64,000 nucleotides of DNA from an uncultured delta proteobacterium (GCA_963729835.1 CAVSQF010000039.1:514801-578800), one strand, 5' to 3'. Shown: positions 5,297-43,455, counted from the first letter of the stretch. The notes: generated from the sequence alone by a model not told the origin. Numbers and translations are program-made.

Positions 5297-5324
5297 GGGC
5301 GTTCTTCTCTCGCGAGGGGGACAA

Positions 5325-5399
5325 TGGGCCCACCAGGATTCGAACCTGGGACCTACCGGTTATGAGCCGGCGGCTCTGACCAGCCTGAGCTATGGGCCC
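5325..5399 (-). tRNA. tRNA-Met (anticodon CAU; elongator type, or possibly Ile2/k2C)
   Basis: RC gives GGGCCCAUAGCUCAGGCUGGUCAGAGCCGCCGGCUCAUAACCGGUAGGUCCCAGGUUCGAAUCCUGGUGGGCCCA. It has a 7-bp acceptor stem, D, anticodon (CU-CAU-AA) and T arms (GUUCGAAUC), a G1-C72 pair and discriminator A. No encoded CCA. Confidence 0.85.
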
Positions 5400-5591
5400 A
5401 CGCGCAGCGCGCATGCGTGACCACTCCGCTACACGGCGCTCTGCCATATTCCGGATACCCGGTATGGCATGGGCGCGGTGTGGAAGCGCTAACGGTATCG
5501 GCATGTTCACCCTCCCCGTTCCTGCTGATTGCAGCATCGCGCAACGAAATCAAGCACCCCGGTCGATCCGGCCTCTCGCAGTGTGCCCACG

Positions 5592-23980: not shown

Positions 23981-24049
23981 TGAGGCTGCTTGAAGATGCG
24001 GCTCTGGCCGAGTGGCTGTGACCCATGCGAAGCAACGAAAGGAAACTGT

Positions 24050-24307
24050 ATGAGGAAGCCTGCACGGAAGATCACTAAACCCCGCCGCAGAGATGCACAG
24101 ACCGAAGAGTTCGAGCGGCGCGATCTCGGCGACGACGTGCGCACCTCCGGCGTCAGGCCGGTCGTCATCCACCCGAAGTCACGCCCGACCTCGATCGTGC
24201 TCGAGCCCGACCTCGTCGCGCAGCTGCGCGAGAAGGCCGCCAAGCGCGGGCTCGGCTATCAAACCATGCTCAAGGTCATCGTACGTGAGCACCTCGACGA
24301 GTACTGA
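24050..24307 (+). CDS. BrnA/CopG-like antitoxin-family DNA-binding protein (orphan; no cognate BrnT adjacent)
   Basis: C-terminal region RPTSIVLEPDLVAQLREKAAKRGLGYQTMLKVIVREHL matches the BrnA (COG3514) ribbon-helix-helix pattern. The likely start is at ATG 24050 (MRKPARK...). Confidence 0.5.
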   Translation: MRKPARKITKPRRRDAQTEEFERRDLGDDVRTSGVRPVVIHPKSRPTSIVLEPDLVAQLREKAAKRGLGYQTMLKVIVREHLDEY

Positions 24308-24318
24308 CCCTGTGTTAC

Positions 24319-25863
24319 GTGACGCCCGTTAGTTGCCGGATGCCTCACGGGAAAATGACCATGAAATACTTCGTCTCTTGGATCGGCCGACAGGATATCG
24401 AGGGAGCTGCCCGCGAGACTCCAACCGGCCCCATTGTCGACTTTCTCCGCGTGCATCCGGAAGTGACCGCGGTCCTACTCGCAGATTGGGCGAAAGATGT
24501 CACGGCGAAGTACGTCGCAGCCGTGCGGCGCGCGGTCGACGCGACCATCGACATCCGACCCATCAAGCTGAAGGACCCCACCGACTATCTCGGCATTTTC
24601 CGCGCAGCAGACGCGGCGCTGGCGCAGCTGATCCAGGACGTCCGCGCTGACGACATCGCCATTCACACTAGCCCCGGCACCAGTGCGATGGCGGCCGTGT
24701 GGATTCTGCTTGCGAAGACGAAGTACGCCGGTGCGAAGCTGTTCAAGAGTTGGCTCGACACGGACGGCACACCCCAGTTGCGCGAAGTCGAGATTCCGTT
24801 CGACCTCACGCTGGACGTCTTGCCGGACATCGCTGCGCGGCGCGCCGCGCTCCTCGCGCCGTTGGACGTTGCGTTGCCGGTGACGAGGGCCTTCGAACCG
24901 CTGATCCATCGGAGCACGATGATGGCCGCCGTGATCCGTAACGCGCGACGCGCCGCGCTCTACCCGAACCCGGTCTTGATCCTCGGCGAATCCGGCACCG
25001 GCAAAGAAGTGCTGGCGCGGGCGATCCATGCCGCCAGCTTGCGTGCCGGCAAGCAGTTTCAACCCAAGAACTGCGCGGCCATGCCGCGCGATCTGCTTGA
25101 CGCCGAGCTGTTCGGGCATGTCAAAGGCGCCTACACGGGAGCCGTTGCCGACCGCCCCGGCCTGTTCGAGGCGTGCGACGGCGGCAGCGTGTTCCTCGAC
25201 GAGGTGGGCGACATGGCGCCGGAGACGCAGGTGCGGCTGCTGCGCGTGTTGCAGGACGGGGAGATTCAGCGCGTCGGCGAGAGCAGAACGCGAAAGGTTG
25301 ACGTGCGCGTGATTGCAGCGACGCATCGCGACCTGATCGCGGCGATGCGCGACGGCGCCTTTCGCGAGGATCTCTTCTACCGCCTGGCCGTGCTGGTGCT
25401 GCACATCCCGCCACTGCGAGAACATCCCGAGGATATCTTCTCGCTCGCGCAGCACTTCCTCGCTGTCTTGAACGAGCGTGCCGCCGCGATTCCCGGCGCC
25501 GAGCGCAAGCATCTTTCCCCTGACGCAAGGAAGTTTGCGGAGAGCTACCCGTGGCCGGGCAATGTGCGCGAGCTGGAGAACACGTTGGCGCGCATCTTCG
25601 CGCTGGTGTCCGGTGACACGATCCGCGGTGAGGATTTCAAAGCCCACGTGATTCCGACCGACGCCGCCAGCACCGAAGTAATTCCGTTGTCCGCACGGAA
25701 AAACTTCAGCCTGAATGAGGAACTTGAAGCCGTCGAGCGACGGTTGATCGAGCAAGCGTTGCGTGAGTGCGGCGGCACCAAGGAGCGCGCCGCGAAGCTT
25801 CTTGGGCTTGCGAGCCGGCAGGCGTTGGCGCATCGTATCCGCCGTTTGGGTGTTCCATCGTAA
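24319..25863 (+). CDS. Sigma-54-dependent transcriptional activator, RtcR-like (non-receiver, CARF-like N-terminal sensor + AAA+ + Fis HTH)
   Basis: Central AAA+ sigma-54 activator motifs: [19 protein letters not shown] (Walker A), [28 protein letters not shown], and the [14 protein letters not shown] signature. C-terminal Fis-type HTH ([17 protein letters not shown]). The N-terminal ~200 aa carry no REC/PAS/GAF hallmarks. The segment [29 protein letters not shown] resembles the RtcR CARF-domain motif as recalled from memory. A likely true start is at 24361 (MKYFVSWIG). Confidence 0.8.
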
Positions 25864-25867
25864 CCGG

Positions 25868-25885
25868 TTGGCACGCTGGCTGCTA
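25868..25885 (+). promoter_or_regulatory. Sigma-54 (-24/-12) promoter
   Basis: TTGGCACGCTGGCTGCTA closely matches the consensus YTGGCACGrNNNTTGCW, with only the first T of the -12 TTGC element deviating (CTGC). It lies 5 nt after the activator gene stop and faces the downstream small ORF and hsdR. Confidence 0.55.
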
Positions 25886-25936
25886 TTCAGTAGTGCAAGG
25901 TGAGCACAGATGGAGAGAGGGAGTTGAACATGGGAG

Positions 25937-26248
25937 GTGCAGCCGAGCGCATCTCTCTTCACGGCAGCCCTGTCGTTGGCGCGCGCTTTGGTTGTACGGG
26001 AGCGCGTTCAGCAGGCACGGGTGCAGGCCGAGTTCAGCGCCATCGAGGCCGCCGTGGGCCGCATCGCCAAGGCGGCGGAGTCGCTCAGCGACATCGTCAG
26101 CATGGCCGGCACGGTTCGTTCGCATGGCGAAAAGATCCGCGACCGCGCCGAGCGCCTCCAGGACGAAATCGACAAGCAGCTTGAAGTGTTGCGGCAGAAT
26201 GTGGAAGGACTAAGGGACCATTCCGAAGGGGACGGTGCAGCAGCTTGA
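25937..26248 (+). CDS. Small helical/coiled-coil protein of unknown function, first gene downstream of the sigma-54 promoter
   Basis: 103 aa ORF with strong GC3 coding bias. The overlapping 25900 frame is Arg/Gly-rich off-frame noise. Its stop overlaps the hsdR start (TTGA). Confidence 0.45.
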   Translation: MQPSASLFTAALSLARALVVRERVQQARVQAEFSAIEAAVGRIAKAAESLSDIVSMAGTVRSHGEKIRDRAERLQDEIDKQLEVLRQNVEGLRDHSEGDGAAA

Positions 26249-28486
26249 GCGACGCCCAAAAAGAAACCGACGCACGAATCGCGATCGACGATATGCTCCG
26301 GCAGGCACGCTGGGACCCGGCGGACAAGTCACAGGTGTTGACAGAGTTCACCGTTAAGCAGGCGTCTGGACTTGTCAGTGAGGAAGACGGCTTTGCGGGT
26401 ATCATCCATAGCGACGGCGATGACATGCCGACCGGACGCGCCGACTACGTGCTGCTGGATCAACGCGGACGTCCGCTTGCCGTTGTTGAAGCCAAACGCA
26501 CAGCTATCCAGCCCTACACCGCCAAGCAGCAGGTCCTTCCCTACGCCAAGAGCATCGGCGCGCCGTTCATCTTTCTAACAACGGCGAGGTGATCTACTTC
26601 TGGGACTACCCAACGACGACGCGCGCATCGTCAACTCGTTCTACTCCCGGCGCGACCTCGAACGTCTGGTCGAGATGCGGGCAGACACAGAAGCCGCTGG
26701 CGACGATTCCGATTCCCGAGCTATTACCTGAGGCAGGGCGAGACAGCGCGCGGTCCGCCCGTACCAGAAAGAAGCCATGCGCGCCCTCGACCAAGCCGTC
26801 GAACTGGGCAAGCGCCGCTTCCTCATCGAGCTGCCGACCGGCACCGGGAAGACGGACCTGATCTGCCTCTACCTCAAGCGCCTCATCAGAGCCGGCCGCG
26901 CTGAGCGCGTCTTTTTCTTGGTGGACCGCGAGCAACTCGCCAAGCAAGCGCTGGAGGCGATGCAAGACATCCTCAACCGGCACGGCAGCTATTGGCTCAA
27001 GCCGGGCATGATTCGGCAGGAGCAACAGATTACGGTCTGCCTGCTCCAGACGATGATCGGCCGCTATCAGGAGTTCACCAGCGGCTACTTCGATGTGGTC
27101 ATCGCCGATGAGTGCCATCGTTCCATCTATGGTGCCTGGCAGACGGCACTTACCCATTTCGACGCGCTCCACATCGGCCTGACTGCCACCCCGGCTGCCT
27201 ACATTGAACGGAACACCTTCCAGCTTCTATCACTGCAAGGACAGCGCAGCCGGACTTCTCCTACCCGATTCAAGAAGCTTTCGAAGAGGAGTACCTGGTC
27301 CCCTACAAGTTCGCCACCGGCATCACCGAGCTACTCGCTGAGGGTGCAGACGTGGACGATGAGCACTACGACCCAGCCGAGTTCGAGCGCAAATGGACCA
27401 ACGAGGACACCAACCGCAAGATGATGGAGGAGTTCGACCGGCTGGCCTGGGAGAACTACAAGGAGCTGGCGCCCGACCAGAAAGTTGGCCCGGGCAAGGC
27501 CATCGTCTTTGCGATCACCAAGCACCACGCCGCTCGGCTGGCGCAGTATCTCAACGAACTGCATCCCGGAGCAGAAAGGGCGCTACGCCGAAGTGATCAC
27601 CTCCGACGTTGCCAACGCCGAGGATCTCATCCGGCGCTTCAAACAGGAAGACTACCCGCAGATCGCCGTCAGCGTGGGCATGCTGGACACCGGTTTCGAT
27701 TGCCGCGAGGTGCTGCATCTGGTCATGTGCCGGCGCGTCCGCAGCCCGATCCTCTACCAGCAGATGCGCGGCCGCGGCACGCGCACCGCACCGCACATCG
27801 GCAAAGAGAAGTTCGTCATCTACGACTTCTTCGGCAATCACGAGTTTTTCAACGACAGCGACACGGACATCTTCGTCGGCACTGGTACTGGCCACGTGCC
27901 CAGCCCGCGGCCACCCCGACCGCCCGGCGGCCGTAACCTCATCGAGCTGGGTCTGGAGGACGAGTGGCTGCAAGCGGTCACCTACGTTGAAGTCGGGCCG
28001 CAAGGCGAGCGCATCGACAAGCAAGACTACGTAAGTCGACTGGGAGCAGGCCATCCGCGCTGCGGCGAAGGATGACGAGGTCGCTGCGTAAGGTGCGAGG
28101 CGGGTATCGAGCTAACGGCGGAAGAAGAGCAACGGCTTGCGGACAAGCTCAATCGTCCGGAGCACTACTTCAACGAAGAAAACCTGCGGCGCGCTTATCG
28201 CAACCCGGGCGGAACGTTGGTTGACTTCATCAGGCACGCGCTGGGAACGGCCAAGGTGAAGAGCCGCGAGGAAGTGGTCACCGAAGATTTCCGCGCGTGG
28301 CTCGTCTCCAAGAACCTCACGCCGGATCAGGCGCAGTACCTGGCCTTGCTCAAGAACCGCGGTATAGTGCGCGGCAAGGTGGACGTCGACGACCTCTTCC
28401 AGCCACCACTGTCGATTCTGAACGCTGCCAGCTCGGCGTCGAGCTGTTCGGCGAGAAGGGCCTGCAGGAGATCGTCACCGAAATGA
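26245..28486 (+). pseudogene. hsdR: Type I restriction enzyme R subunit HsdR, heavily degraded
   Basis: HsdR homology (nuclease N-terminus ADYVLLDQRGRPLAVVEAKR; helicase motifs I TGTGKT, II DECH, III TATP; DUF3387-like C-terminus) is spread over at least 6 ORF fragments in all three frames. Lesions mapped by frame tracking: 1-nt deletions near 26578 and 26611; an in-frame TGA at 26729; frameshifts near 27245, 27568, 28052/28098 (a compensating pair) and 28430. Confidence 0.8.
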
Positions 28487-30188
28487 ACGAGGCGATCTTC
28501 GCCAGAAGGCGCATAGCGGCGATGAACCAAGCCCTGCGCAGAAAGCTCGACCACATCACCGACATCCTGTGGGCTGGTGGGGTTACCAATCCGGTGACTT
28601 ACATCGAGCAGATTTCTTACCTCATTTACCTCAAGCTGCTCGACGAGGAGGAGTCGGTCCGTGAGCTGCAGGCGCGGCTCACCGGGAGGCGCGGCAACGG
28701 TAACAGCAAGAGTCTCTTTCCGCAGCAGGCTGAGCGCTACCGTTGGTCGAAGTGGCGCTTCAAGAGCGGCGAGGAGCTGCGCAACTTCGTGCGCGACGAG
28801 GTCTTCCCCTACATGGGCTCGCTGGTGCGGGAAGAACCGCAGATCGCCGAGTACTTCCGCGACGCGGTCTTGGAGATCGTCGACCCCAACGTGCTCAAGC
28901 AAGTCATTGATGAACTCGACAGCATCGACTTCCGCAAGCTCGGCACCGACGTGAAGGGCGACATCTTCGAGTATCTGCTCACTCATCTCGGCCAGTCGGC
29001 GCTCAACGGCCAGTTCCGCACGCCGCGGCAGATCCGCACGATGATGGTGGCGATGCTCGATCCCGATCTCGGCGACACGATTTTCGATCCGGCGTGACGG
29101 CACTGCAGGGTTCCTCATCGACTCCGTTGAACACATCCTGGCCAAGTACTCCGAGAACGCCGCAGGAGGTGCCGATCTACGGCGAGGAGTGGCTGGAGAA
29201 GCGCGGGCAAGCAATTGAAGAAGTCAAGGCGCAGATCCCCACGCTGCAGACGTATCGGAAGGGCGCCGGCGAAAAGATCCCGGACTGGGAGCTGCTGGAG
29301 CGGTCCATCTACGGCATCGACGTTTCGCGGCAGATGATGCGCATCGGCATGATGAACCTGGTCCTGCACGGCATCCGGCACGCGCAGGTGAAGCGCGCCA
29401 ACAGTCTCTCTGAGATGGGCGGGCTGAGTGAAGAGGACCTGCGGCGGCGCTACAAGGTCATTCTGTCCAACCCGCCGTTCGCCGGCGTGCTTCCGAGGGA
29501 ATCGATCCGCAAGGATCTGGGGACCAGCTCGAAGAAGAGCGAGCTACTGTTCCTCGGGCTGATGATGCAATCGCTCGCGCCGGGCGGCCGTTGCGCCGTG
29601 ATCGTACCCGAAGGGCTGCTGTTTGGCTCAACGTCGGCGCACGTCGAGCTCCGCCGCAAGCTCGTCGAAGAGTTCGAGTTACTCGCGGTCGTCTCACTGC
29701 CCGCGGGTGTTTTCAAACCTTACGCCGGAGTAAAAACGGGTGTCCTGGTGTTTCGCAGACCAGTGACCACTGATCACTCGTCACTGACCACTGCTCGTAA
29801 AGTCTGGTTCTACGAAATCCACGCCGACGGCTACGACCCCGACAAGATCACCGGCGGCGGCCGGCCGGAGACGCCTGAGCGGAATGACATCCCGAATCTT
29901 CTATCGCAATGGGCGACATACAAAGCATCCGGCTTCCGCGAACCGCCTGGGCATGAAGCCAACTCCCTTCTCAGTCCGGACGACTCCGCAGCGAGTTGCT
30001 GGTGGGCAACTGTCGGACTCGTTGCTGAGAACGACTACAATCTCGCGGCTGGGCGCTACAAGCCACAGGTCGCTGAGAAGGCGCCGGAAGAGAAACCCGA
30101 ACAGGTCGTCCAAGAGGTCCTCTCGATCGAGCGCGAGATTGAAGTGGGACTGGAACGACTGCTCAGGGATATTGAGACCGCACGGTAG
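28483..30188 (+). pseudogene. hsdM: Type I R-M methyltransferase HsdM, apparently disrupted by two +1 frameshifts
   Basis: The HsdM_N region and motif I (GQFRTPRQI...IFDPA) read in one frame up to a TGA at 29095. DPACGTAGFLIDSVEHIL continues only after deleting one base. The downstream part (YGIDVSRQMMRIGMMNLVLHGI, NPPF) is in the third frame, which requires a second shift near 29170-29215. Confidence 0.6.
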
Positions 30189-31451
30189 ATGGAACACAGA
30201 GGCTCAATGGCGTTTCCTTGGCGGCGTGTTCCGTTCGAACACGCGTGCTCGGACACGACGGGCGGTCAGATGAAGGTCCAGAAGCGCGACTATCTCACCG
30301 ACGGCCCTCTGCCGGTAGTCGACCAAGGGCAACAACCTGTCGCAGGATACACGGATGCATTGGATGCAGCCTATCGCGGCCCACTGCCTGTTGTGCTTTT
30401 TGGAGATCACACACGCGTGTTCAAGTACGTGGATTTCCCGTTCGCGCTCGGAGCGGATGGAGTGAAAGTACTCGTCGCGAAGCATCCTTTCCATCCCAAG
30501 TTTCTTTGGTTCTACTTCCGGTCCCTGCAGATCCCGAGCCGCGGGTACAGCCGCCATTTCAAATTCTTGGGCGAGTTTGCGGTGCCGCTTGTGGCTCCAT
30601 CCGAGCAGCGGCGCATCGTGGAGATCCTCGACCAGGCCGAGGCGCTGCGGAAGCTGCGCGCCGCGGCCGACGCCAAGGCCGAGCGCATCCTGCCCGCGCT
30701 CTTCTACAAAATGTTCGGCGACCCGGCGACGAACCCGATGGTGTGGCCAATCTCGAAGCTTGGCGACCCCGACATTACATTGGAGTTCCGCTACGGAACA
30801 TCGAGCAAGTGTGAGCCCGAACCGCAGGGATTGCCCGTCTTGAGAATACCGAACGTGTTGAAGGGGGAGATCGACTTGGCTGATCTGAAGTATGCAGATC
30901 TATCGGGAGCTGAAGTCGAGCGCCTGCTCTTGGCGCGAGGGGATCTGCTCTTCGTGAGGACGAACGGAAACCGGGAGTATGTGGGCCGCTGCGCGGTCTT
31001 TGATCTTCCCAAGCCTTTCTTGTTCGCTTCCTACCTTATCCGCGCACGGCTGAACGCCTCGAAGGTTGACCCTTGGTACGTGGCCGCGTTTCTTCGGAGC
31101 CCGGTGGGCCGCCAGCATATGTCACCGGTGATTCGAACCACGGCCGGTCAGTCGAACATCAGCGTCGAAGGACTGAGCAACATCGAGATACTTGTGCCCC
31201 CAATTGAACATCAGCATCGATTTCGGTCGCTGACCCAGGAACTGCTTAGACTTCGGCGCCAACGTGAGTCCGCAGCGGCAGCACTACAGACCGCGTTCGA
31301 AACGCTGCTTCATCGTACATTCTCCGGCGACCTGACGGCCAAGTGGCGCGAGGCGCACATGCAGGAGCTGCTGGCGGAGATGGAGGGGCAGGCGAAGGCT
31401 CTAGCCGGAGCAAATCCCGACACGGCTGTCGAGCGCGGGGCTCTCGTATGA
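30189..31451 (+). CDS. hsdS: Type I R-M specificity subunit HsdS (two target-recognition domains, intact)
   Basis: 420 aa with two TRDs separated by a conserved central region and a C-terminal coiled-coil repeat (LRKLRAAADAKAERILPALFYKMFG ... LLRLRRQRESAAAALQTAFETLLHRTF). Confidence 0.8.
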   Translation: MEHRGSMAFPWRRVPFEHACSDTTGGQMKVQKRDYLTDGPLPVVDQGQQPVAGYTDALDAAYRGPLPVVLFGDHTRVFKYVDFPFALGADGVKVLVAKHPFHPKFLWFYFRSLQIPSRGYSRHFKFLGEFAVPLVAPSEQRRIVEILDQAEALRKLRAAADAKAERILPALFYKMFGDPATNPMVWPISKLGDPDITLEFRYGTSSKCEPEPQGLPVLRIPNVLKGEIDLADLKYADLSGAEVERLLLARGDLLFVRTNGNREYVGRCAVFDLPKPFLFASYLIRARLNASKVDPWYVAAFLRSPVGRQHMSPVIRTTAGQSNISVEGLSNIEILVPPIEHQHRFRSLTQELLRLRRQRESAAAALQTAFETLLHRTFSGDLTAKWREAHMQELLAEMEGQAKALAGANPDTAVERGALV

Positions 31452-33109
31452 TTACCGCGCTCCGCATCGGCAACTTCAAGGCCTTCGCCGAACCGCAAAC
31501 GGTTCCGATCAAACCCCTCACGCTCATCTTCGGCGCCAACAGCGCAGGTAAGTCGAGCATCATCCATGGGCTGTTGCTCGCACACGAAGCGAACCGCACG
31601 GGCAATCTCAACGTGCTGCGGACCGAGCTGGGAGGTGACTCGGTCGACCTCGGAGGGTTCCGCCAGTATACGCACCGGCATCAGGACTGGCAGCCGGTAC
31701 ACTGGGGCGTCGAGATGCAGGTGGCCGCCTTGAGTGGTCGCCTCGCCGAGTTGCTCACGCCGGCTAGGACGGTTGCGCTCCAGTTGCTCATCGGCGTGCG
31801 AGAGAGTTCGTGGGAAGTGCCAGAGGTTGTGGAGACGCTTGCCTATGACCTGGTCGTTGACGAGGTCAGCCTCCTCCGCGCCAGCCGGCGGAAGATTGAA
31901 GACTTCATGCAGCCGACCGAAGACATGCGGCTTGACCGGATAGACCATCACCATGCGGTTATCGAAAGGATTCTGGGCGCCATCGTTGAAACCAGTACGA
32001 CGGCAACCAAAATCTCTGCTTCTGATCTGGAGAGCGTCGCAGAAGCCGTCGACGCTTTGGTCCCTGCGTTGAGTGTCACGGGAAAGGGTCTGCTTCCTAA
32101 CCGCGTAACCGTTGAGGCAACATCGCCGGGAGACGAGAGTCGGACTTTGTTTCCGGTGGGCAAGGGGAGCCGGCACGAGGATCTGGCCGCAGCGGTCCGT
32201 TTTGTCCTCCCGCGCACGCTCAGTGAATTGATCGGCGGACTAAGCGAGGTGGCGCGCAGTGAATTGGGCCGGCTGCGCTATCTCGGCCCGTTGCGCTCTT
32301 ACCCGCCTCGGCACCTCGCATCGGACCAGTATCACGACCCGAACTGGCTTGCCGGCGGTGGGCACGCCTACGAGGTGCTGCGCACCAATGAGTCTGTGCG
32401 CTCCGCCGTAAACCGATGGCTGAGCGATCCCGAAAAACTCAGTACGCCGTATGAGGTGCGGGTCGAGCACCTTGTGACCGTCGACGATCTGGAGCTGGCC
32501 TATGCGAGGAGGGTTGAAAGCGAACGGGATGCACTCGCGGATGTCCTCGAAGTCCCCGAGGACGAGGCGGCCGATCTCTCGGAATGGAAGGAAGAGGAGG
32601 TGTCGTTCGATCACCTCCGAGAATTGGAGCACAGCGAAGCGCGGCTGCAGGTCTTGCACCTCGTCGACAAACGAACCGAAACACAGGTCACTCACCGTGA
32701 CGTGGGCATCGGCATCAGCCAGGTGTTGCCCGTGCTGGTAAGCGCGTACGGTTCCTCGGACCTGATCGTCGCCATCGAGCAACCTGAGATCCACCTGCAT
32801 CCCGCCCTTCAAGCCGAGCTTGCCGATGTCTTCATCGACTCCGCACTCGGGGAACGCAAGAACACCTTCCTCCTCGAAACGCACAGCGAGCACCTGATCC
32901 TCCGGGTGATGCGCCGGATGCGGGACACTGTTCGTGGCAAACGCGGTGATGCGCCGCCGGTGAGACCGGAGGACGTAGCCGTGCTGTTCGTCGAGCCCAC
33001 CACCAAGGGCTCAATCGTGCACGAACTGCGGCTGAAACCGGACGGCTCGCTGCTCGATCCGTGGCCCGGCGGCTTCTTCGAGGAAGGGTTCGGCGAGCTG
33101 TTCGGGTGA
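31448..33109 (+). CDS. ABC-type/SMC-like ATPase of the AAA_21 family with a DUF3696-like C-terminus
   Basis: Walker A FGANSAGKSS, the signature D-loop/Walker B DLIVAIEQPEIHLHP, H-loop LLETHSEHLI, and a C-terminal DPWPGGFFEEGF. The ATG overlaps the hsdS stop (ATGA), which implies translational coupling. Confidence 0.7.
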   Translation: MITALRIGNFKAFAEPQTVPIKPLTLIFGANSAGKSSIIHGLLLAHEANRTGNLNVLRTELGGDSVDLGGFRQYTHRHQDWQPVHWGVEMQVAALSGRLAELLTPARTVALQLLIGVRESSWEVPEVVETLAYDLVVDEVSLLRASRRKIEDFMQPTEDMRLDRIDHHHAVIERILGAIVETSTTATKISASDLESVAEAVDALVPALSVTGKGLLPNRVTVEATSPGDESRTLFPVGKGSRHEDLAAAVRFVLPRTLSELIGGLSEVARSELGRLRYLGPLRSYPPRHLASDQYHDPNWLAGGGHAYEVLRTNESVRSAVNRWLSDPEKLSTPYEVRVEHLVTVDDLELAYARRVESERDALADVLEVPEDEAADLSEWKEEEVSFDHLRELEHSEARLQVLHLVDKRTETQVTHRDVGIGISQVLPVLVSAYGSSDLIVAIEQPEIHLHPALQAELADVFIDSALGERKNTFLLETHSEHLILRVMRRMRDTVRGKRGDAPPVRPEDVAVLFVEPTTKGSIVHELRLKPDGSLLDPWPGGFFEEGFGELFG

Positions 33110-33116
33110 ACCTTGG

Positions 33117-34016
33117 ATGCTGCACCTCGTTTACTTTGCGCCCGAGAATCTGTCCGATCCCGTCGTTCTGAGTGATGCTGGCGCCGGTCTCCTGATCAGC
33201 GTGCTGCGCTCACTCCTCCAGAACTGCCTCCTGCTTGATTTCACCGACTACCGCTTTGACGACCGCGTCGCCGTGGAAGTGGAAACGCTGCCGCATGAGC
33301 TCAGAAAGATGGTCAAGGTGCTGCTCGCGCAGTTCAAGAAAGCAAATCGAATCATCCGGGCACTGAAGGACGACTACGCCGGCTCCACCGAATTGCACCT
33401 GGCAGCCGAGCAGGCGGCGCAACTCGGCCTGGAATTGGTGATCATCCGTGCCGACACCGAATGGGACCCGCAGGCGACCCGAGTGCCGCGGGCCTCGCTC
33501 ACCGGCTACCCGATGACGGACTTCGAAGCCGTTCGCTCACAAGGTGTTGCAGACCGGCATTACAGTGATGATGGGATACCGGCGACCCAGTTCATCGAAG
33601 TGTATATCGTTCCGTTCGTGCGATTCGCCGAACGGCTCGACCTCATCGATGGCTCACTGGGAGAGAACTACCGGGACGACTACGGGCATACCCTGGATTG
33701 CCTCTTCGCGGCGCTTGGCAGGTCATGCCACTGGAAGGAACGTGTGCAGGTCACGATCCACTGCTGCCGGGGTGCGGGTAACAAACCCGATCACGTGCGC
33801 GACACGGTGCTTGAGTTGACAAAGAAGCACGGGCTCGACGGTCATGCGCAGACCTATTTCTACGGCGACCCCGGCCAGCCGTTCAGGTTCAAGCACGACC
33901 GTTGCCTCGCATCTGAATTTGGGAGTCCTGAACATCGGCCGTGGCTTCGACTTCGTCCAGAAGGCGGACGGCAAGCTCAAGAATACAATCATCGGTTTCG
34001 GCGGACCAGACGCTGA
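33117..34016 (+). CDS. Hypothetical 299-aa protein, predicted partner of the upstream ATPase
   Basis: Intact ORF 8 nt after the ATPase stop. No recognisable motifs: no obvious TOPRIM E...DxD, HNH or HEPN Rx4-6H signatures were found. Confidence 0.4.
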   Translation: MLHLVYFAPENLSDPVVLSDAGAGLLISVLRSLLQNCLLLDFTDYRFDDRVAVEVETLPHELRKMVKVLLAQFKKANRIIRALKDDYAGSTELHLAAEQAAQLGLELVIIRADTEWDPQATRVPRASLTGYPMTDFEAVRSQGVADRHYSDDGIPATQFIEVYIVPFVRFAERLDLIDGSLGENYRDDYGHTLDCLFAALGRSCHWKERVQVTIHCCRGAGNKPDHVRDTVLELTKKHGLDGHAQTYFYGDPGQPFRFKHDRCLASEFGSPEHRPWLRLRPEGGRQAQEYNHRFRRTRR

Positions 34017-34137
34017 CACAATGCTCGCACCGTATGTCGCGATCAGGAGTTAGTGACGGTGCCGAGACCTCCACCCGCGCGGATTCGGATCTACCCCAAG
34101 CTGCTGGCGGGCTCCGCGGAGTAGAAGGTGACGCCGA

Positions 34138-34518
34138 GTGATCGGAAAGGCCGCCTGCAAGGCGCGGCGTGAGGGCACGCCGGCTCCAGAATTCGTGTTC
34201 TTTCTGGCGCCCAGCCTGCGTATTGCGGAACCTATACTCGCGTGTTACCCGCTGGGCTTCTCTGCGCGCGCGCAGCATGCGCTCTTCAACTTCATCGCTG
34301 CCGGCGCGGTGGCCATCACCGACTTTGGCGCCGCGGACGTCTCTCGTGCCGCGGCGCTGATGCAGCGCTTCGCCAATCTGCCGATGGATTTTGCGGATGC
34401 CACCCTGGTCGTCCTCGCCGAGCGCCTGCACGCGACCACCGTGTTCACACTCGACCGCCGCGACTTCACCGTCTACCGGGTCGGCCGGCGCACCCTTCGC
34501 CTACTCCCTAAAGGCTGA
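34138..34518 (+). CDS. PIN-like (VapC-family) protein with substituted first catalytic Asp
   Basis: C-terminal half matches VapC (MDFADATLVVLAERLHATTVFTLDRRDFTVYR). The N-terminal strand reads FFLAPSL instead of the canonical LDTS. Confidence 0.35.
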   Translation: MIGKAACKARREGTPAPEFVFFLAPSLRIAEPILACYPLGFSARAQHALFNFIAAGAVAITDFGAADVSRAAALMQRFANLPMDFADATLVVLAERLHATTVFTLDRRDFTVYRVGRRTLRLLPKG

Positions 34519-34542
34519 CCCAGGCCGTGTCGCCGTCGTGGC

Positions 34543-34950
34543 TCACGCGGGGCGCACCCGCTCGATCTTGAGCTTCGAGTGCCGTGCGAGGACATCGTAA
34601 TCGCGATCATTGTGCAGCAGCGACGCCCGCTCACGGATCGCCACGGCCGCGATCAAGCAGTCGATCAGCTTGCGCACCGTGTCCCCCTTGCGGCGACAGG
34701 TGCGATACAGCTCCGCCGCACCTTCGAAGTCGGGCAGCCCCCGGAGGCGCAGGCGCGGCAGGCCGAGTAGCAGGACACGCATGCGGGCGTGATCGGCGCC
34801 CGTCCTCGCGCCGGCGAGCACCTCCATGATCACCACCTCGGTCGTCGCGATCGGGGCACACGCTTGCAACAGGTGCCTGAGAGCCAGGTGCGTCGGGTGA
34901 CCGCTCTTGCGCAGGAACTCGATCCAGGCGGAGGTATCGACGAGAATCAT
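34543..34950 (-). CDS. vapC: Type II toxin VapC (PIN domain)
   Basis: MILVDTSAWIEFLR... is the canonical PIN N-terminus, and acidic residues are conserved. Confidence 0.85.
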   Translation of the reverse strand: MILVDTSAWIEFLRKSGHPTHLALRHLLQACAPIATTEVVIMEVLAGARTGADHARMRVLLLGLPRLRLRGLPDFEGAAELYRTCRRKGDTVRKLIDCLIAAVAIRERASLLHNDRDYDVLARHSKLKIERVRPA

Positions 34951-35246
34951 CGTCCGCCGCGCGCGCGCCGCAGCTCGGCCAGGTTCCCCTCCCAGCCAGC
35001 TCCCTCCAACTGCAACAGCTCCTCGTACAGGTCAATCTCCTTCAGGCGCCCCGTTCGCTTCGCCCACTCCTCGATCTCAGGCCAGTCCCACGCCGGTTGT
35101 CCGGACACCGTCCACCGTGGCAGCGGGAGCAACCCCCGTTGACGCCAGGTATGGACGGTCTGGGCCTTCACGCCCAAGCGGGAGGCGATCTCGGCAGCCC
35201 CGACGGGGATCGATTCCGGCACCGGCGCAGCCGCAGTAGAGGGCAT
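34947..35246 (-). CDS. vapB: Antitoxin with an N-terminal HTH (excisionase/AlpA-like); cognate VapB-type partner
   Basis: 99 aa. Has a 4-nt overlap with vapC and an HTH-like segment (AAEIASRLGVKAQTVHTWRQRG). Confidence 0.55.
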   Translation of the reverse strand: MPSTAAAPVPESIPVGAAEIASRLGVKAQTVHTWRQRGLLPLPRWTVSGQPAWDWPEIEEWAKRTGRLKEIDLYEELLQLEGAGWEGNLAELRRARGGR

Positions 35247-35300
35247 GCGTCTTGTGTAGCGCCCAGCGCTACAGGTGTCAAGGTGATTCTCGAATCGCCC

Positions 35301-36071
35301 CTACGGCGCGCCGGTTCCCGGACGGCGCAGCGCCTCGACTTTCGCAATCAGGTTGTGACAATCGCCGATGGAGCGGCCACTGATTCTCGCGCACGCCAAT
35401 TCGCGGTGCAGCGGCGCGGAGCCGGAAACCTGCCCATCAGCCGTAACCTCACCGATGCCCGGGACGAGCACCATCGCGCTGCTGAGCTCGATGATGCCTT
35501 CCGGCGTGTGCACGGAGCGTACGGTCCGGACGGAGACCGCAGCGCGGAAATCACCGAGGGCGGTATGCACCGCGGCGGCGGCACTGACACGGACAACCTG
35601 TGTTACCTGCACAGAGCCGGTGCGCTGATTGTCGCTGAGCCGCGTCACCTCCGCGGTCGCCGCGCCGTGGCGCTCACCGGGCACCAGCGGCATCTCCAGT
35701 TGCGACAAGGGTGGATCATAGCGCAAGCGCTCGCCCGGCCCGAAGTCCTCGCTGAGCAGCAGCAACGCATGACCGTCGTCACGGAAGTGCGTACGAGCAA
35801 CTGCCACGCCATCCTCACTTGTAGTGACCTCAAATTCTCCTTCCGGGCCCGCCGCCGTGACGCGCTCGACGTGGATGCCGGCATTCACGTCTCCGCTCTC
35901 GCCAGCCCGCCACCACAGGTACACCAGATGATCGCCATCGGCGTGCGGCACCAGCTCCTGCAACGAGGTTGCAAGCGGTTTCGGTCCTGCCAGCCGCAGC
36001 ATCGAGCAGGCGGTGACGCCGAGGAGGGCACACAGCCAGACGGCACGATGGCGGGAAGTCAGTGTCACCAT
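35301..36071 (-). CDS. Hypothetical lipoprotein
   Basis: Signal peptide with lipobox LLGVTAC. 256 aa with no recognised domain. Confidence 0.45.
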   Translation of the reverse strand: MVTLTSRHRAVWLCALLGVTACSMLRLAGPKPLATSLQELVPHADGDHLVYLWWRAGESGDVNAGIHVERVTAAGPEGEFEVTTSEDGVAVARTHFRDDGHALLLLSEDFGPGERLRYDPPLSQLEMPLVPGERHGAATAEVTRLSDNQRTGSVQVTQVVRVSAAAAVHTALGDFRAAVSVRTVRSVHTPEGIIELSSAMVLVPGIGEVTADGQVSGSAPLHRELACARISGRSIGDCHNLIAKVEALRRPGTGAP

Positions 36072-36126
36072 CGCCCCTATGAGTATGTGTCGATCTTGCG
36101 TAGATCGAGATACACCTGCTTCACGC

Positions 36127-38763
36127 TCACGTTTTCGTCCTTTCCTTTTCTGGCCGGGGTTTCTGCGCGCTGAATGGTTGGCGTGCGACAGTCTCTTCCG
36201 CAGGTCTGATCAGTCTACCCAGGTCGGCCCGGAGCTTGGCCGCGAAGTGAGCCACCAGGCTGGCATCAGCCATGGCCATGTCCAGTTGGCGGGTGTGTAT
36301 GATCAGGTGGCCTAGGGCTCGCACGCTCTCCAAGGCCTCGGCATCACTCAAGTGGTCCCGGCGCGCCCGTATGGCATCGGCACGGATGACCGCCGCGAAA
36401 CCCAACTCCTCCAGCAGTTCGGCCATGAGGTGAAGGCGGGTCTGCTTGCGGGCCATGTCGGCCCCGCCGCCTTGGAAGGCGAACAGCACAAAATCTTCCT
36501 CTGGGTCGGGACCGGCCAAGACTTCCACCGCAGCAAAGTGCGCTCCCAGCCGCGATTGCAAGTTCATGAAGTCGCGCCCCACCAGGAAGTAGTTGCCTTC
36601 TTCCCAACCGGCACGGGTCTCCAGTTCCGGCCGCATGGTGGACTGCACGATGACCGAAGTCAGCCCGGAGCCGGTGATCGGCGGCCCATCCCAGGGCACA
36701 GCCAGCATGCCCTCCCACAGGGCCAGCCATGGCCGACTGGCGATCTGCTCGACGCGCACATACTTGCCGCTCACCTCTTCCGTGAAGCCGCCGCCGATGT
36801 CGATGAGCCGCCACTGCATAGGTGCGTTGCAGTAGAGCCTCTTGGCTGCAGCGACCGGAAACTTCTTCCCGCCCAGGCTGAAGATCTCGCGCACCGCCTG
36901 CTCATGGCAGAAACGGGTTAGATCATGCAGGGTGCGACAACTCGCCACATTGAACTCTGGGGAAGATGGGTCCGGGAGGTTCAGCGGTACGGCCAATGCG
37001 ATGAGCTGCTCGAGGCTGCGCCGGATAGGGGTCTGCGGTGCCGGCGGCGCCGGCCGGGCTCTCAGCAGGCCCTCCACGCGGCCGGGATAGATAGCTCGGC
37101 GGTCCGCATCCACTGTGATCACCTTCCCTTGCCTCGAGCCGTTTCAAATCCGGCCCCACGTCCAGAAGCGCCGGCACCCTAAACTCTCGCGCCACGGTGG
37201 CTAAATGGCCCGCCAGCCCGCCGTGGCCCGCAACCAAGGCCTCAGCCCGGCTCAAGAGAGGGGCCCAACGTGGCAGCGGCCGCTCTACAACCAGCACCTG
37301 GCCGGCCTCGAAGAGCATGGCGTCACGCCCGGTACGCACCCAGTGCACCACCCCAGCGGCTGCCCCAGGTGCGGCCCCGAGCCCAGCGCTGATGATCGGA
37401 TCAGGCAGCCCCTCCACCAGCGGCTGGGCGGCCGCTGCAGCTTGACGGTGGAGCGGCCGACATTGCAGGTAAACCAGCTGCCCTCCCCTATCCAGTGCCC
37501 ACTCCAAGTCCTGCGGCCCCCCGAATGCCATCTCCACCTCTTTAGCACAGGCAGCTAGTTCCTTGGCCAGGTCATCGCTGAGCGGACTTGTGTTTCTTAG
37601 CCCCTTTGGTAGCTCAGCCGACAGCACCCCGCTGGAAGGGTCGCACTGGTAGTAGCGGTCCTGGCTGCCGGCGCGGCGCTGCAGGACTCCGCTTTCGGTG
37701 TCCACCACGATCTCCACGGCCTCTGCCGAGCCGTCCACCACGCCCTTGGGCAGGCCCCAGCAGGCGCTGATGTACACCCTGCCGTCGGCCGGGTCCAAGG
37801 GTGAGGCACTGTACACCACCCCTCCAGCTCGGGCCGGAAGCATCACCAGGCAGCCCGCTGCCATGGCTAGGTCCTGGTCTCTCAGACCATGGTGGCCATA
37901 GTAACTAAGGGCCTGCGGGCCGTAAGCGCTGGCAACGACCTCGCGATAGGCCTCGCACAGTGCGGCGGGCGTTACGTTCAACTCGGTGTGAAACTGACCG
38001 GCAAAGGAAGCCGCGCCCACGTCCTCTCCCAAAGCGCTGGAACGCACCGCAAGCTTCAACTCGGGACCGTGGCGCTGGAGCAGCCGTTGGCAGGCGGCCG
38101 CCATTTCCTGTTCCAACTCCGGGGGCAACTCGCCCTCGATGAAGAGCCGCTGCAAAGCGGAACAGGCGGCAAACAGCTCGTCGACCCCGCTCAGACTCTT
38201 GATCTGCAGCAGCCGGTTGATTTCGGCGCGCAGGTCGTTGTGCTCCACGAAGCGGGCGTAGGCCACGGTGGTGATCACGAACCCGTCGGGCACCGTCAGC
38301 CCCAGCCGGTTGCCCAGTTGTGCCAGTGTGGCCATCTTGGGGCCGGCCAGGTCATCAGCCCCTACGCCAAGCTCACCCAACTCAACCACAAGGGGCCGTG
38401 GGGCAACGGCCGCGCCCCGGCGACCTGCTCGTCCAGCTCCCGCTTCAGCGCCGTGAAGCGCTCCATCAGCGCGGTGTAGCGTCCCGGTGCTAGCTTCTGC
38501 AGTTCCTGGATCATGGCCAACACGCTCACCGCCATTTCGGTAGCCGCCGAACGCAGGCGCGCCATGGTGACGGGCTCCGGACTCTGCTGAGCCTCTTGGA
38601 GTTCGGCCATGATGGTCAACGCCCGGCTGTTGGCCTTGAGCAGGTTGCGGTAGCCCAGGAACCGCCCCGCGAGACGAGTGCGTAGCTCGGCCAGCACCGC
38701 CTGATCCTGCGCACCAGACCGGCCGCGGAACAGGGACTTGATCAGGGTGCCCCAGCCGCCCAT
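36127..38763 (-). pseudogene. Swivel-histidine dikinase-like protein (N-helical + PPDK_N/ATP-grasp + PEP-utilizers mobile His + novel C-terminal domain), paralog A; two frameshifts
   Basis: ORFs 38362..38763 (helical N-terminal domain, homologous to the paralog B N-terminus), 36923..38389 (PPDK_N-like domain and swivel motif GGLAGHLATVAREFRVPAL) and 36127..37122 (C-terminal domain) are collinear with the intact paralog B. Lesions lie near 38375 and 37123 (EG/KVITVDADRR). Confidence 0.6.
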
Positions 38764-40860: not shown

Positions 40861-43455
40861 TCACGAAGCCGACCCCACGGTTGGCAAGGTGGTGAGATTG
40901 TAGTCGCCCCGGCTGAAGGCCTGAGCCAGCCATTCCACCATGTGCGGCCCGTCCATGAGCATGTCCAACTGGCGGCTGAAGAGCACGAGTCGTCCTATTT
41001 CCTCGAGAATGCGCGTGATCTCCTCCGGCGCACGCTTTTTCAGGAAGGCGCTGACTGCGTCGCCGGTGCGCTCGGCGTTGAAGCCCAGGTCGCCGAGGAT
41101 GCGCTGCACCAGCACCGCCCTGAGCAAGCGGCGGTCCTCGGTGGCCGCCCCGCCGTGGAAGCGGAAGCTCACGTAGTTGTCGTTCAACCGCTGCCCACAG
41201 TAGCAGTCCAGGGCCGTAAAGTGGTAACCCACCCGGCAGTTGAAGTTGATGTAGTCGGCGCTGAGGATGGCGTAGGCTCGCCCGCCCATGCTGCGCTGGC
41301 CGGCGTCCTGCGGCGGGGTCAAGAGCGACGCGCTGAGGACCGAGGCGAGGCCCTTCAGGCTCACCGGCCGCGGAGCACTCCAGTCGATGCGCTGGTCGGT
41401 AAGCCCCTTCAGGAAAGCTGCACCCGGCCGGGACTGCACGGCCTCGACCCCGGGGCTTTCCCCCGCCTCAGCACGCAGCCCGCCACCCAAGTCGATGATC
41501 CACAAATCAAAGGGCAGCTTGACCTGCAAGCGGCGGGCTGCTCCCGCTGCCTTCTGCCCCACTTGGTCGCCCAGGCGGAACATTTCATTGAAGGACATCT
41601 CATGCATGAACCGGATGAGGTCGTGAAAGCTGCTGCAGTTCTCCGGACGGAACTCCGGGGCCTTGGGGTCAGTGAGATTCAGCCGGGTGATGAGTTGAAC
41701 CGCCCTGAGCCTCAAGGGCAGTGCCCGTACCCGGCTGGCGACGGCCTGGGTGGTGATCTTGTGGTCGAGCAATGCATCCACCCGGCCGCCGTAAACTCTG
41801 CGGTTGCTGGCGTCCAGAGTCACCTCCAGACCAGGCGTGAGCTTTTCCAATGCCCCGGCCACACCCACCAGCGTCGGCACTCCATACTCCCGGGCGAGGG
41901 CCGCTAGGTGTCCGGCCACCCCACCCACCTCAGTTATCAGCGCCGTAGCCGCGGGCAGCAACGCCGCTAGAGCTGGCGAGGACTCACGAGCCACCAGTAT
42001 CGCGCCGGTGGGGAAGTCGGCCATGTCGTCGATCCCGCGCACGAGATGCACGGGGCCGCAAGCGGTGCCCGGCCGCGCCGTCTGCCCGCCGCTCAGAATT
42101 AATGGCGCGCTTACCCTCACCCGGGTGGGGCTGGCCGAATCCTGCACCACCCGCAAAGGCCGAGCCTGCAGTATACACAGGCGCCCCTGGCCGTCCCGTG
42201 CCCACTCCACATCTAGGGCCTCGCCTAGGATGTGTTCTAGACGTAAGCCGACCACCGCCAGTTCTTGAATGGCTTCGGCCGGCAGCACCTGCTGACGGGC
42301 CTGCTCGGGATCCAGCTTCCGGCGTTCTGTCCCTTGCGGCCCGACCACCAGCATGTAATCCCTTCGGCCCACGTGGCGCACGCTGTAGCCAGCGTCGGGA
42401 CCCCGATCCGCCGTGTAAACGTCCGCGTCCAGCGATCCGTCCACCAGCCCTAGTCCAAGACCCGGTACCGCGCTGATGACAGCCGGTCCCTTGCCGCCGG
42501 CCAGGGGGTCGGTGGTGTAGAGCACCCCGCTGACCGCCGACTCGACCATGACCTGCACCAGTACGGCCATCTCGGCATCCAAGTCCGAAAGTCCTTCCCG
42601 TTCGCGGTAGGCCAGGGCCTGCGCGGAATACAGGGAGGCGAGCACCGCGAGATACGCGTGGGGTGCGTCGTCTGGGCGCACCCCCAGTCGACTCTCGTAG
42701 AGTCCGGCGAAGGAAGTGTGGGTGTCCTCACCGAGAGCACTAGAACGGAGCGACAAAGCGGCCCCGCCCTGGGCGCTGCTTAGAGCGCGGCACCGTTCCA
42801 GCATTTCTTTCTCTAGGTCCGCCGGAAGCTTGATCGTAGCGAATTCGGCCTGCAAGCGACGTGAACGTTCTTCCCGTGCGGCCAGGTCGCCCCCCTCTGC
42901 CAGCATGGCCACCTGCCGTAGCCGCCCCCCGAGCCCGGTCTCGGCCATTACTCGGCGGAATGCCTCGGTCGTAATGACCAGACCCTCCGGCACCGGCAGC
43001 CCCTCCCGGCGCAGAGTGGCCAGGTTGCTGGCCTTCGCCCCGGTTAGATGCTCCATACCCGGCTCTACGGCCTCCAGGGGCAAAAAGCTCGATCCAGCGG
43101 CGGCGTCCGCCTGGATGGCTAACAGTGCATCGATCTGGTGGCGTACCTCGTTGAAGGGTGCCAACAGAGACTGGTAGCGGTCGCCGGAGATGAGGTTCAG
43201 GTGGCGGATCATCAGAAAGACCTTGGCGCTGGCGGCAATATAGCGAGAGCGCAAAAAGTCCACCCCCAACACGCCGCTCCGCTCCAGGACACTCTGGATC
43301 TCGGCGATGATCTCCAGCACCTCGTTGTTGGCCCTGAGCAGGTACTGGAACTCCTTGAAGCGCAGTTTGAGCTGGACAAAGCCCTGACCTGGCTCCCGCG
43401 AGGAACCACGCAGGTTGCGCCAAGCTCTGGTGAAGCGGTTGGTCACAACCGTCAC
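40861..43455 (-). CDS. Swivel-histidine dikinase-like protein, paralog B (intact, 864 aa)
   Basis: A PPDK_N/ATP-grasp-like region, the PEP-utilizers mobile domain (EVGGVAGHLAALAREYGVPTLVG) and a C-terminal ~300 aa domain (YVSFRFHGGAATEDRRLL...). That C-terminal domain lacks the TIM-barrel PEP-binding motifs of genuine PEP synthase/PPDK. Confidence 0.75.
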   Translation of the reverse strand: MTVVTNRFTRAWRNLRGSSREPGQGFVQLKLRFKEFQYLLRANNEVLEIIAEIQSVLERSGVLGVDFLRSRYIAASAKVFLMIRHLNLISGDRYQSLLAPFNEVRHQIDALLAIQADAAAGSSFLPLEAVEPGMEHLTGAKASNLATLRREGLPVPEGLVITTEAFRRVMAETGLGGRLRQVAMLAEGGDLAAREERSRRLQAEFATIKLPADLEKEMLERCRALSSAQGGAALSLRSSALGEDTHTSFAGLYESRLGVRPDDAPHAYLAVLASLYSAQALAYREREGLSDLDAEMAVLVQVMVESAVSGVLYTTDPLAGGKGPAVISAVPGLGLGLVDGSLDADVYTADRGPDAGYSVRHVGRRDYMLVVGPQGTERRKLDPEQARQQVLPAEAIQELAVVGLRLEHILGEALDVEWARDGQGRLCILQARPLRVVQDSASPTRVRVSAPLILSGGQTARPGTACGPVHLVRGIDDMADFPTGAILVARESSPALAALLPAATALITEVGGVAGHLAALAREYGVPTLVGVAGALEKLTPGLEVTLDASNRRVYGGRVDALLDHKITTQAVASRVRALPLRLRAVQLITRLNLTDPKAPEFRPENCSSFHDLIRFMHEMSFNEMFRLGDQVGQKAAGAARRLQVKLPFDLWIIDLGGGLRAEAGESPGVEAVQSRPGAAFLKGLTDQRIDWSAPRPVSLKGLASVLSASLLTPPQDAGQRSMGGRAYAILSADYINFNCRVGYHFTALDCYCGQRLNDNYVSFRFHGGAATEDRRLLRAVLVQRILGDLGFNAERTGDAVSAFLKKRAPEEITRILEEIGRLVLFSRQLDMLMDGPHMVEWLAQAFSRGDYNLTTLPTVGSAS

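Follow-up and report, generated by a model that had tools for sequence, protein, structure and literature searches.

A candidate sigma-54 promoter at the stop codon of an RtcR-like CARF-AAA+-HTH activator gene, ahead of a decayed defence cassette in an uncultured delta proteobacterium

A 64,000-nucleotide stretch of DNA from an uncultured delta proteobacterium (GCA_963729835.1 CAVSQF010000039.1:514801-578800; hereafter the window) encodes an RtcR-like CARF-AAA+-HTH activator that probably heads a co-directional defence operon through a sigma-54 promoter at the activator's own stop codon. Judging from the annotated sequences of related loci, the cassettes behind this promoter are most often type I restriction-modification (R-M) systems accompanied by an AAA_15 ATPase; other loci have cassettes of the CoCoNuT-like or NACHT kind. 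A circuit of this kind has already been predicted in the literature, and the window holds a degenerate member of it. What is added here is the conserved location of the promoter at the activator's stop, a quantified cargo spectrum, a recurrent nuclease-like partner of about 540 amino acids and the decayed state of the locus.

The activator gene lies on the plus strand in an open reading frame (ORF) at 24319-25863. A preliminary description, made from the sequence alone, had read it as a protein of 514 amino acids; the ORF exists as described, and the reading of its length gives way to a probable start at the ATG at 24361, yielding an intact protein of 500 amino acids (24361-25863). Full-length homologues all start at an equivalent MKYxVSWIG, and a public protein collection holds an identical 500-amino-acid activator. 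Evidence from Pfam, PADLOC, AlphaFold2 (AF2) with Foldseek, BLASTP and hhalign places a CARF domain at 24361-24894, a sigma-54 interaction AAA+ domain at 24904-25401, a lid at 25417-25665 and a Fis-type HTH domain at 25723-25845. In the Pfam search, Sigma54_activat (PF00158) covered residues 182-347 (E 6e-65), accompanied by AAA_lid_14 and HTH_8, the Fis-type HTH PF02954 spanned residues 455-495 (E 8e-9), and REC, PAS and GAF domains were absent from the first 180 residues. This bears out the preliminary description, which had proposed canonical AAA+ and Fis HTH domains behind an N-terminus of another kind than receiver, PAS or GAF. Since the AAA+ domain carries Walker A, Walker B and the sigma-54 contact loop and is followed by a C-terminal HTH, the protein is predicted to be a bacterial enhancer-binding protein with intact AAA+ and HTH domains. 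Its closest homologues are 74-78% identical, and the window copy itself comes from a Binatia-like lineage.

The first 178 residues are, according to structural modelling, an RtcR-type CARF domain. A sequence search of the PDB with this domain returned zero matches even at E 10, and a fold comparison was therefore needed. An AF2 model built on an alignment of the N-terminal domains from 36 homologues reached a mean predicted local distance difference test (pLDDT) score of 90.9 and a predicted template modelling score of 0.81. The top 50 Foldseek matches of this model in the PDB were all CARF proteins (best E 2e-6), including Csm6, Cam1, Cad1, Can2, Csa3 and ring nucleases, and the PADLOC profiles CARF1 and CARF4 weakly matched activator residues 24-121. 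In a database of 5.8 billion proteins, the N-domain query gave fragments only, and the full-length query retrieved the family. BLASTP aligned the activator with E. coli RtcR (NC_000913.3) from residue 68 onward at 31% identity (E 9e-40), pairing a 29-letter stretch of the N-domain with YLIHITTGTHVAQICWFLLAEARYLPARL in E. coli RtcR and a 27-letter segment with IHITTGTHVAQICWFLLAEARYLPARL, and hhalign of the N-domain profile against the E. coli RtcR N-domain gave 96% probability. The resemblance to the CARF segment of RtcR that had been pointed out for the 29-letter stretch was thereby confirmed by the alignment. The motif after CARF strand 4 reads HTSPGTS, without the K/R typical of CARFs that bind cyclic oligoadenylate; RtcR-type CARFs lacking this residue were noted by Makarova et al. 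(2014, PMC4012209).

Comparison with family profiles indicates that the activator belongs to the paralogous RtcR_PspF2 CARF-AAA-HTH family and is not an RtcR orthologue. RtcR is its best NCBIfam match and, unlike other enhancer-binding-protein models, covers much of the N-terminal domain too, yet the RtcR equivalog NF038308 scored 314 bits against a cut-off of 650, and the Pfam RtcR domain PF06956 stayed below threshold at 17.4 bits (E 0.003) against a gathering score of 23.1. The PADLOC-DB profile PDLC01995 (RtcR_PspF2--CARF_AAA_HTH), for which the library carries no curated cut-off, matched residues 2-498 along profile positions 2-480 of 481 with 530 bits (E 1.6e-159), compared with 172 bits only for the canonical RtcR profile in PADLOC. 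Searches by tblastn with E. coli RtcA and RtcB found no match in the whole 64-kb window, as the preliminary description had supposed, nor within 10 kb in 90 related loci.

The activator stop codon TAA ends at 25863, and after five nucleotides the element TGGCACGCTGGCTGCT follows on the plus strand at 25869-25884, pointing into the downstream genes; the string TTGGCACGCTGGCTGCTA starts at 25868, just past the stop. Within the window alone the promoter pattern occurred at chance level (3 matches with at most one mismatch against 2.6 expected), so such a count was uninformative and a positional test across loci was used instead. The motif TGGYAY-N5-NTGC was sought with its start between -30 and +25 nucleotides of the activator stop in 71 non-redundant loci whose activator gene is complete at its 3' end. 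It was present in 42 of them (about 60%), from many phyla, against a background of 49 occurrences in the remaining 2.16 Mb of locus sequence, or 0.00125 per interval, which amounts to an enrichment of about 500-fold at the stop codon. Most motifs started at 0 to +7 or at -19 relative to the stop. Across 43 promoters, namely those of the 42 loci and the window, the positions left free in the search showed G after TGGCAC in 33, T before TGC in 22 and T or A after TGC in 36, a consensus that fits the sigma-54 pattern TGGCACG-N4-TTGCW. The closest relatives (L012 and L005) bear an identical or near-identical element, and Geotalea uraniireducens Rf4 (CP000698.1, activator at about 1,220,895-1,222,385) has TGGCATGTCCGCTGCA two nucleotides past its activator stop. 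The -24/-12 element that had been pointed out just past the stop codon is thus met again in the family, and its sequence, positional conservation and consensus argue that TGGCACGCTGGCTGCT is a genuine sigma-54 promoter.

A search of GTDB species genomes yielded 534 loci that encode a relative of the N-domain; at 50% identity, proteins bearing this domain fall into about 2,000 clusters. A survey of homologous activators for linkage to R-M and ATPase modules, which had been suggested at the outset, drew on annotated neighbourhoods and tblastn on the same strand for 57 informative loci with at least 3 kb downstream, and returned the linkage. An hsdR-hsdM(-hsdS) set lies directly downstream in 24 of the 57, and 13 of these run on into the same AAA_15 ATPase; one further locus shows hsdR only, on a contig too short for more. 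The ATPase occurs with no detectable R-M genes in seven loci, a CoCoNuT-like cassette with a UPF1-like helicase in nine (preceded by vWA-PP2C-kinase genes in seven), the nuclease-like gene of about 540 amino acids alone in one, and other cargo in the remaining 15, for example a NACHT protein of 1574 amino acids. Co-orientation of the cargo is strict, and the spacing stays between +49 and +800 nucleotides across phyla, though the cargo varies by locus. In Geotalea uraniireducens Rf4, the order is activator-hsdR-hsdM-hsdS, an 83-amino-acid ORF, the ATPase and a 309-amino-acid ORF, behind an activator 41% identical to that of the window; further annotated hsd-type neighbourhoods are those of L007 and L010. 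The linkage of activator and defence genes spans Desulfobacterota, Proteobacteria, Planctomycetota, Myxococcota and the Binatia-like lineage of the window. Because it has been kept across these phyla, with the Geotalea activator just 41% identical, the linkage is considered ancient. Cultured carriers include Geotalea uraniireducens Rf4, Comamonas testosteroni SWCO2 and Azospira sp. I13.

In the window, Pfam and tblastn recovered the downstream order hsdR-hsdM-hsdS-ATPase-partner that had been proposed, on the plus strand throughout, and showed most of it to be damaged. The first ORF behind the promoter (25937..26248, 103 amino acids) had been described as a small coiled-coil ORF overlapping hsdR. 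The coiled coil and the overlap stand, and the ORF itself turns out to be the remnant of a larger gene, corresponding to the C-terminal 100 or so residues of a protein of about 540 amino acids. When the 538-amino-acid protein of L007 was compared with the window by tblastn, residues 437-536 alone matched, at 25931-26224 with 53% identity, so that this gene has lost about 435 codons. The hsdR pseudogene (26245..28530) starts at a TTG at 26245 that overlaps the stop of the 103-amino-acid ORF. Searches with the intact HsdR of L007 and L008 followed it end to end, from HsdR residue 2 to 746, in frames 1, 2, 1, 2 and 1, that is through four frame changes whose junctions were inspected; Pfam recognised only fragments of HSDR_N, ResIII and Helicase_C. 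In hsdM (28522..30188), tblastn passed through frames 1, 2 and 3, and translation of the junctions located two frameshifts at about 29095 and 29160, in the region of the AdoMet-binding motif DPACGTGGF, with HsdM_N and N6_Mtase divided between two ORFs.

The gene hsdS (30189..31451, 420 amino acids) is apparently intact, with a Methylase_S match and a one-frame tblastn alignment to residues 3-427 of the L007 HsdS. Its stop is overlapped (ATGA) by the confirmed start of an intact ABC-type ATPase gene of the AAA_15/AAA_21 type with a DUF3696 tail (31448..33109), identified by Pfam. The product of this gene aligns with the Geotalea orthologue in one frame at 47% identity and has its best PADLOC matches in PDC-M55A, NsnB, HEC-03B and AriA. 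The partner gene of the ATPase (33117..34053, about 300 amino acids) carries a one-nucleotide frameshift near 33925, and its present ORF ends at 34016. The encoded protein departs from nine homologues after residue 270 or so, and the conserved C-terminus lies in another frame. The frameshift cuts the conserved motif HxR-x4-E-x6-GRGFDF and takes away the C-terminal block VLNIGRGFDF..., which is nearly invariant in the nine homologues. No intact hsdR-hsdM-hsdS set of the type I R-M kind is present in the window; activator, promoter, hsdS and ATPase are whole, so that hsdS and the ATPase gene are the only whole cargo ORFs. The preliminary description had singled out hsdR as the decaying gene and had seen in the circuit a reason why the rest of the module is kept. 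With two frameshifts in hsdM, one in the partner that removes its C-terminal motif, and a deletion remnant as the first ORF, decay extends well past hsdR and this explanation of retention is weakened.

Uniform sequencing error was considered as the sole cause of the frameshifts and set aside: glnE (1031 amino acids), a penicillin-binding protein gene (641 amino acids), an 864-amino-acid PPDK-like gene, a histidine kinase gene and an IS4 transposase gene are all whole, and such an error is unlikely with large flanking genes in this state, although the frameshift in a neighbouring PPDK-like paralogue leaves some doubt.

These features bring forward the alternative that survives best, and which we hold to be slightly favoured for this genome: the circuit is real in the family and vestigial here, a leftover activator and promoter heading a dead cassette and, if still maintained, serving another target or marking a recent decay. 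It is backed by seven frameshifts, of which hsdR has four, hsdM two and the partner one, by the deletion of about 435 codons from the first gene and by the intact housekeeping genes on the flanks, and truncated activator remnants are common in metagenomes. It is opposed by the intactness of activator, promoter, hsdS and ATPase, which would be unlikely if seven frameshifts had fallen at random (roughly 0.01 by length share, as an estimate), and by the possibility of assembly indel errors in a metagenome-derived contig, in which a neighbouring PPDK-like paralogue is frameshifted too.

Several points weigh against the proposal of an activator driving a defence operon from its own stop codon. The window cargo is largely non-functional, and the circuit here may consequently be vestigial. 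The strict motif at the stop codon is missing in 29 of the 71 loci, and no enhancer site (upstream activating sequence, UAS) was identified near the promoter. The contact loop of the activator is GAYTGA, not GAFTGA, a natural variant that occurs in 12 of 109 family members. No RpoN box was detected in the 64-kb window, the sole part of the genome examined, and literature searches found no experimental study of the RtcR_PspF2 family addressing start site, ligand or phenotype.

With the promoter at the stop codon, an enhancer at the usual distance of 80-200 nucleotides would fall inside the HTH/linker coding region of the activator. Two palindromes there were tried and rejected as UAS. For the AT-rich TTCCGT-N7-ACGGAA (25682-25700), conservation in close relatives (CGG...RAA) was not beyond that of coding sequence, and for GCGGCG...CGCCGC, about 95 nucleotides before the stop, conservation of position and sequence was likewise not beyond coding constraint. 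A scan for terminators between genes found 12 against 8.8 expected and none between activator and promoter, so read-through can add basal expression.

A more far-reaching version of the proposal is that the activator and its stop-codon promoter form a portable cassette behind which unrelated defence cargo is swapped, with the enhancer carried inside the regulator's coding sequence, so that one signal of RNA damage or infection, sensed by the CARF domain, would induce whichever cargo is docked. The cargoes seen behind the unit are varied, comprising type I R-M, the AAA_15 ATPase with its PLD-like partner, the coiled-coil PD-(D/E)xK protein, CoCoNuT and NACHT cassettes; this version is nevertheless put forward tentatively, and we consider it possible rather than probable. 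If it is true, anti-phage immunity would possess a general inducible layer based on sigma-54.

A simpler account holds that activator and defence genes merely share a defence island, that the promoter-like sequence is idle and that the cargo is expressed from its own sigma-70 promoters or by read-through. The chance-level count of the pattern in the window and the lack of a terminator between activator and cargo would fit this, and Bell et al. (2024, PMC11090510) regard internal promoters as likely in loci headed by RtcR. We judge it improbable in view of the roughly 500-fold positional conservation of the -24/-12 motif, the sigma-54-like consensus at unconstrained positions, and the strict co-orientation and tight spacing maintained across phyla despite differing cargo. 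That the protein is a true RtcR orthologue serving rtcBA elsewhere in the genome, its position at the R-M island being incidental, is very unlikely: RtcR is its best-scoring NCBIfam model, a weak Pfam RtcR match exists and identity to E. coli RtcR reaches 31%, yet both scores fall under their thresholds, the RtcR_PspF2 profile scores three times higher, rtcA and rtcB are found in neither the window nor the related loci, and the stop-codon promoter and co-directional defence cargo are conserved.

For the stop-codon promoter driving the defence genes, a course of events can be proposed by analogy with RtcR biology, together with PMC4012209 and PMC11090510. In the resting state, the CARF domain would keep the AAA+ domain inactive by autoinhibition. 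A ligand derived from infection or damage would bind the CARF domain and lift the inhibition, upon which the AAA+ domains would assemble and, through ATP hydrolysis, open the closed complex of sigma-54 RNA polymerase at 25869-25884. Transcription of the downstream genes would follow on demand, in addition to any read-through from upstream.

Most defence systems are thought to be constitutively expressed. If R-M and abortive-infection cassettes were indeed preceded by a ligand-gated, ATP-dependent sigma-54 switch, immunity would gain an inducible layer, and DNA restriction would be coupled to RtcR-type sensing of RNA damage. Defence regulators of the WYL type (BrxR/CapW) and the Csa3 type resemble the window activator in sensing ligands and heading defence operons; they are sigma-70-type repressors or activators with a winged HTH, whereas the window activator is of the ATP-dependent sigma-54 type. 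The gain of the present analysis lies in a precise, testable promoter position at the regulator stop and in a list of cultured carriers. For experiments the window copy itself is ill suited, since most of its cargo is pseudogenised and its host lineage is uncultured and Binatia-like.

The preliminary description had regarded a CARF-type activator wired to restriction genes as an unusual stress-to-defence circuit, a view that the literature does not support. RtcR-like CARF-AAA-HTH proteins "not linked to Rtc" and "often associated with R-M systems" were described by Makarova et al. (2014, PMC4012209), who predicted such regulators to be sigma-54 activators of downstream genes. The window activator agrees with these RtcR_PspF2 regulators in domain architecture, in the lack of rtc linkage and in its location directly upstream of R-M genes, and nothing essential differs, the window copy being Binatia-like and heading a decayed cassette. 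In the CoCoNuT "superoperons" of Bell et al. (2024, PMC11090510), an RtcR homologue stands first at the 5' end, type I R-M and other systems are interposed, and BrnT-like genes were reported upstream of RtcR-associated operons. The window shares with them the RtcR homologue at the 5' end, a co-directional defence operon and a BrnT/BrnA-type gene upstream. The superoperons have type I R-M between the regulator and further effectors, and the window cargo consists of type I R-M with the AAA_15/DUF3696 ATPase and its partner. CoCoNuT, a subclass of type IV restriction, is marked by a UPF1-like helicase (CnuH) and by McrBC-like CnuBC genes. The CnuH-like helicase, vWA, PP2C and kinase parts of L031 and L046 were not found in the window by tblastn, nor did the ORFs at 25937-36173 contain such Pfam domains. 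RtcR-associated operons were reported with BrnT-like genes upstream, whereas the window has a BrnA-like antitoxin gene alone, with no toxin gene. Neither PMC4012209 nor PMC11090510 maps promoters, presents experiments or reports the placement at the stop codon, and a 2025 preprint goes no further than listing an RtcR-annotated gene among those of a Pseudomonas defence island.

The window activator has in common with RtcR of E. coli and Salmonella its CARF-AAA+-HTH architecture, a CARF beta4 motif H-x-[ST]-x-GT without a following K/R and, by prediction, sigma-54 dependence. The arrangement differs, in that rtcR and rtcBA of E. coli are divergent and the window promoter stands in tandem directly 3' of the activator gene. 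The targets differ too, being the rtcBA RNA repair genes for RtcR and, by prediction, defence genes for the window activator.

The family represented by the first ORF probably consists, on sequence features, of coiled-coil PD-(D/E)xK nucleases. Intact homologues of about 540 amino acids are long and helical; they combine a PD-(D/E)xK-like core, marked by the motif KGD...VFEAK, with a C-terminal coiled coil, and match Mrr_cat and DUF2130 weakly. No PADLOC match was obtained for these proteins of about 540-560 amino acids; the Mrr_cat and DUF2130 matches are sub-threshold and the family is unannotated. Members recur beside activators, directly downstream in the Binatia-like loci L007:11534-13150 and L012:11565-13145, and divergently upstream in Myxococcota at L074:1745-3397(-), L075:8188-9867(-) and L083:8175-9866(-).

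The ATPase partner is tentatively taken to be a PLD/HKD-like nuclease effector on the basis of modelling. Its AF2 model was poor (pLDDT 59), and the weak PDB matches (E 1e-3 to 0.1) were mostly of the PLD family, namely MITD1, PLD2, Streptomyces PLD and F13. Homologues of about 311 amino acids (P0287-P0295) belong to no Pfam or PADLOC family and have an invariant H-x-R-x4-E-x6-GRGxDF.

Between the window (26245-30188) and Geotalea uraniireducens (L008:11534-15447), HsdR and HsdM share 58-81% identity, and the adjacent activators only 41%. The R-M cassette has either been exchanged horizontally behind resident regulators or evolved much more slowly than the regulator.

Individual loci show further cargo. 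In L010 (17743-20983), behind an activator of this type, hsdS and the AAA_15 ATPase gene are separated by the candidate defence pair PDC-M61A/B (E 1e-205 and 1e-239). Directly behind activator-family members lie a NACHT/NB-ARC protein of 1574 amino acids in L088 (2282-7006) and, in L034 (1743-4970), a HATPase_c-domain protein followed by a receiver-domain protein. Activator remnants of 160-273 amino acids, either CARF-only or CARF with partial AAA+, occur on long metagenomic contigs (L001:10001-11745, L003:10001-10483, L004 and L002). In L001 the remnant is followed by an AAA_15 fragment of 58 amino acids, which suggests that decay has repeatedly struck regulator and cargo together, as whole modules.

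The left edge of the island is formed by an orphan antitoxin-like gene of the BrnA/CopG type (23990..24307, plus strand), 53 nucleotides upstream of the activator, with weak Pfam matches to CopG_antitoxin, BrnA_antitoxin and RHH_1. No BrnT-like toxin ORF adjoins it, and no homologue was found in the other 90 loci. The immediate left neighbour of the antitoxin-like gene, on the opposite strand, is a MarC-like membrane ORF with glnE and transaldolase genes before it, and the right flank of the island is a PPDK-like gene. The island's right end has a small ORF at 33941-34141 and, downstream of it, a PIN-domain (VapC-like) ORF at 34138-34518, which look like a VapBC-type toxin-antitoxin pair, and the following ORF at 35097-36173 (358 amino acids) has no family match. 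Two paralogues with PPDK_N and PEP-utiliser domains, at 36127-38389 and 40861-43455 on the minus strand, are 35-38% identical; the one bordering the island shifts frame at about 37130, as a frameshift or pseudogene, and the 864-amino-acid copy is intact. Elsewhere, the window holds an IS4-family transposase gene (44021-45367, minus strand), a class A RNase P RNA (4183-4535, minus strand, 234 bits) and a tRNA-Met (5324-5400, minus strand).

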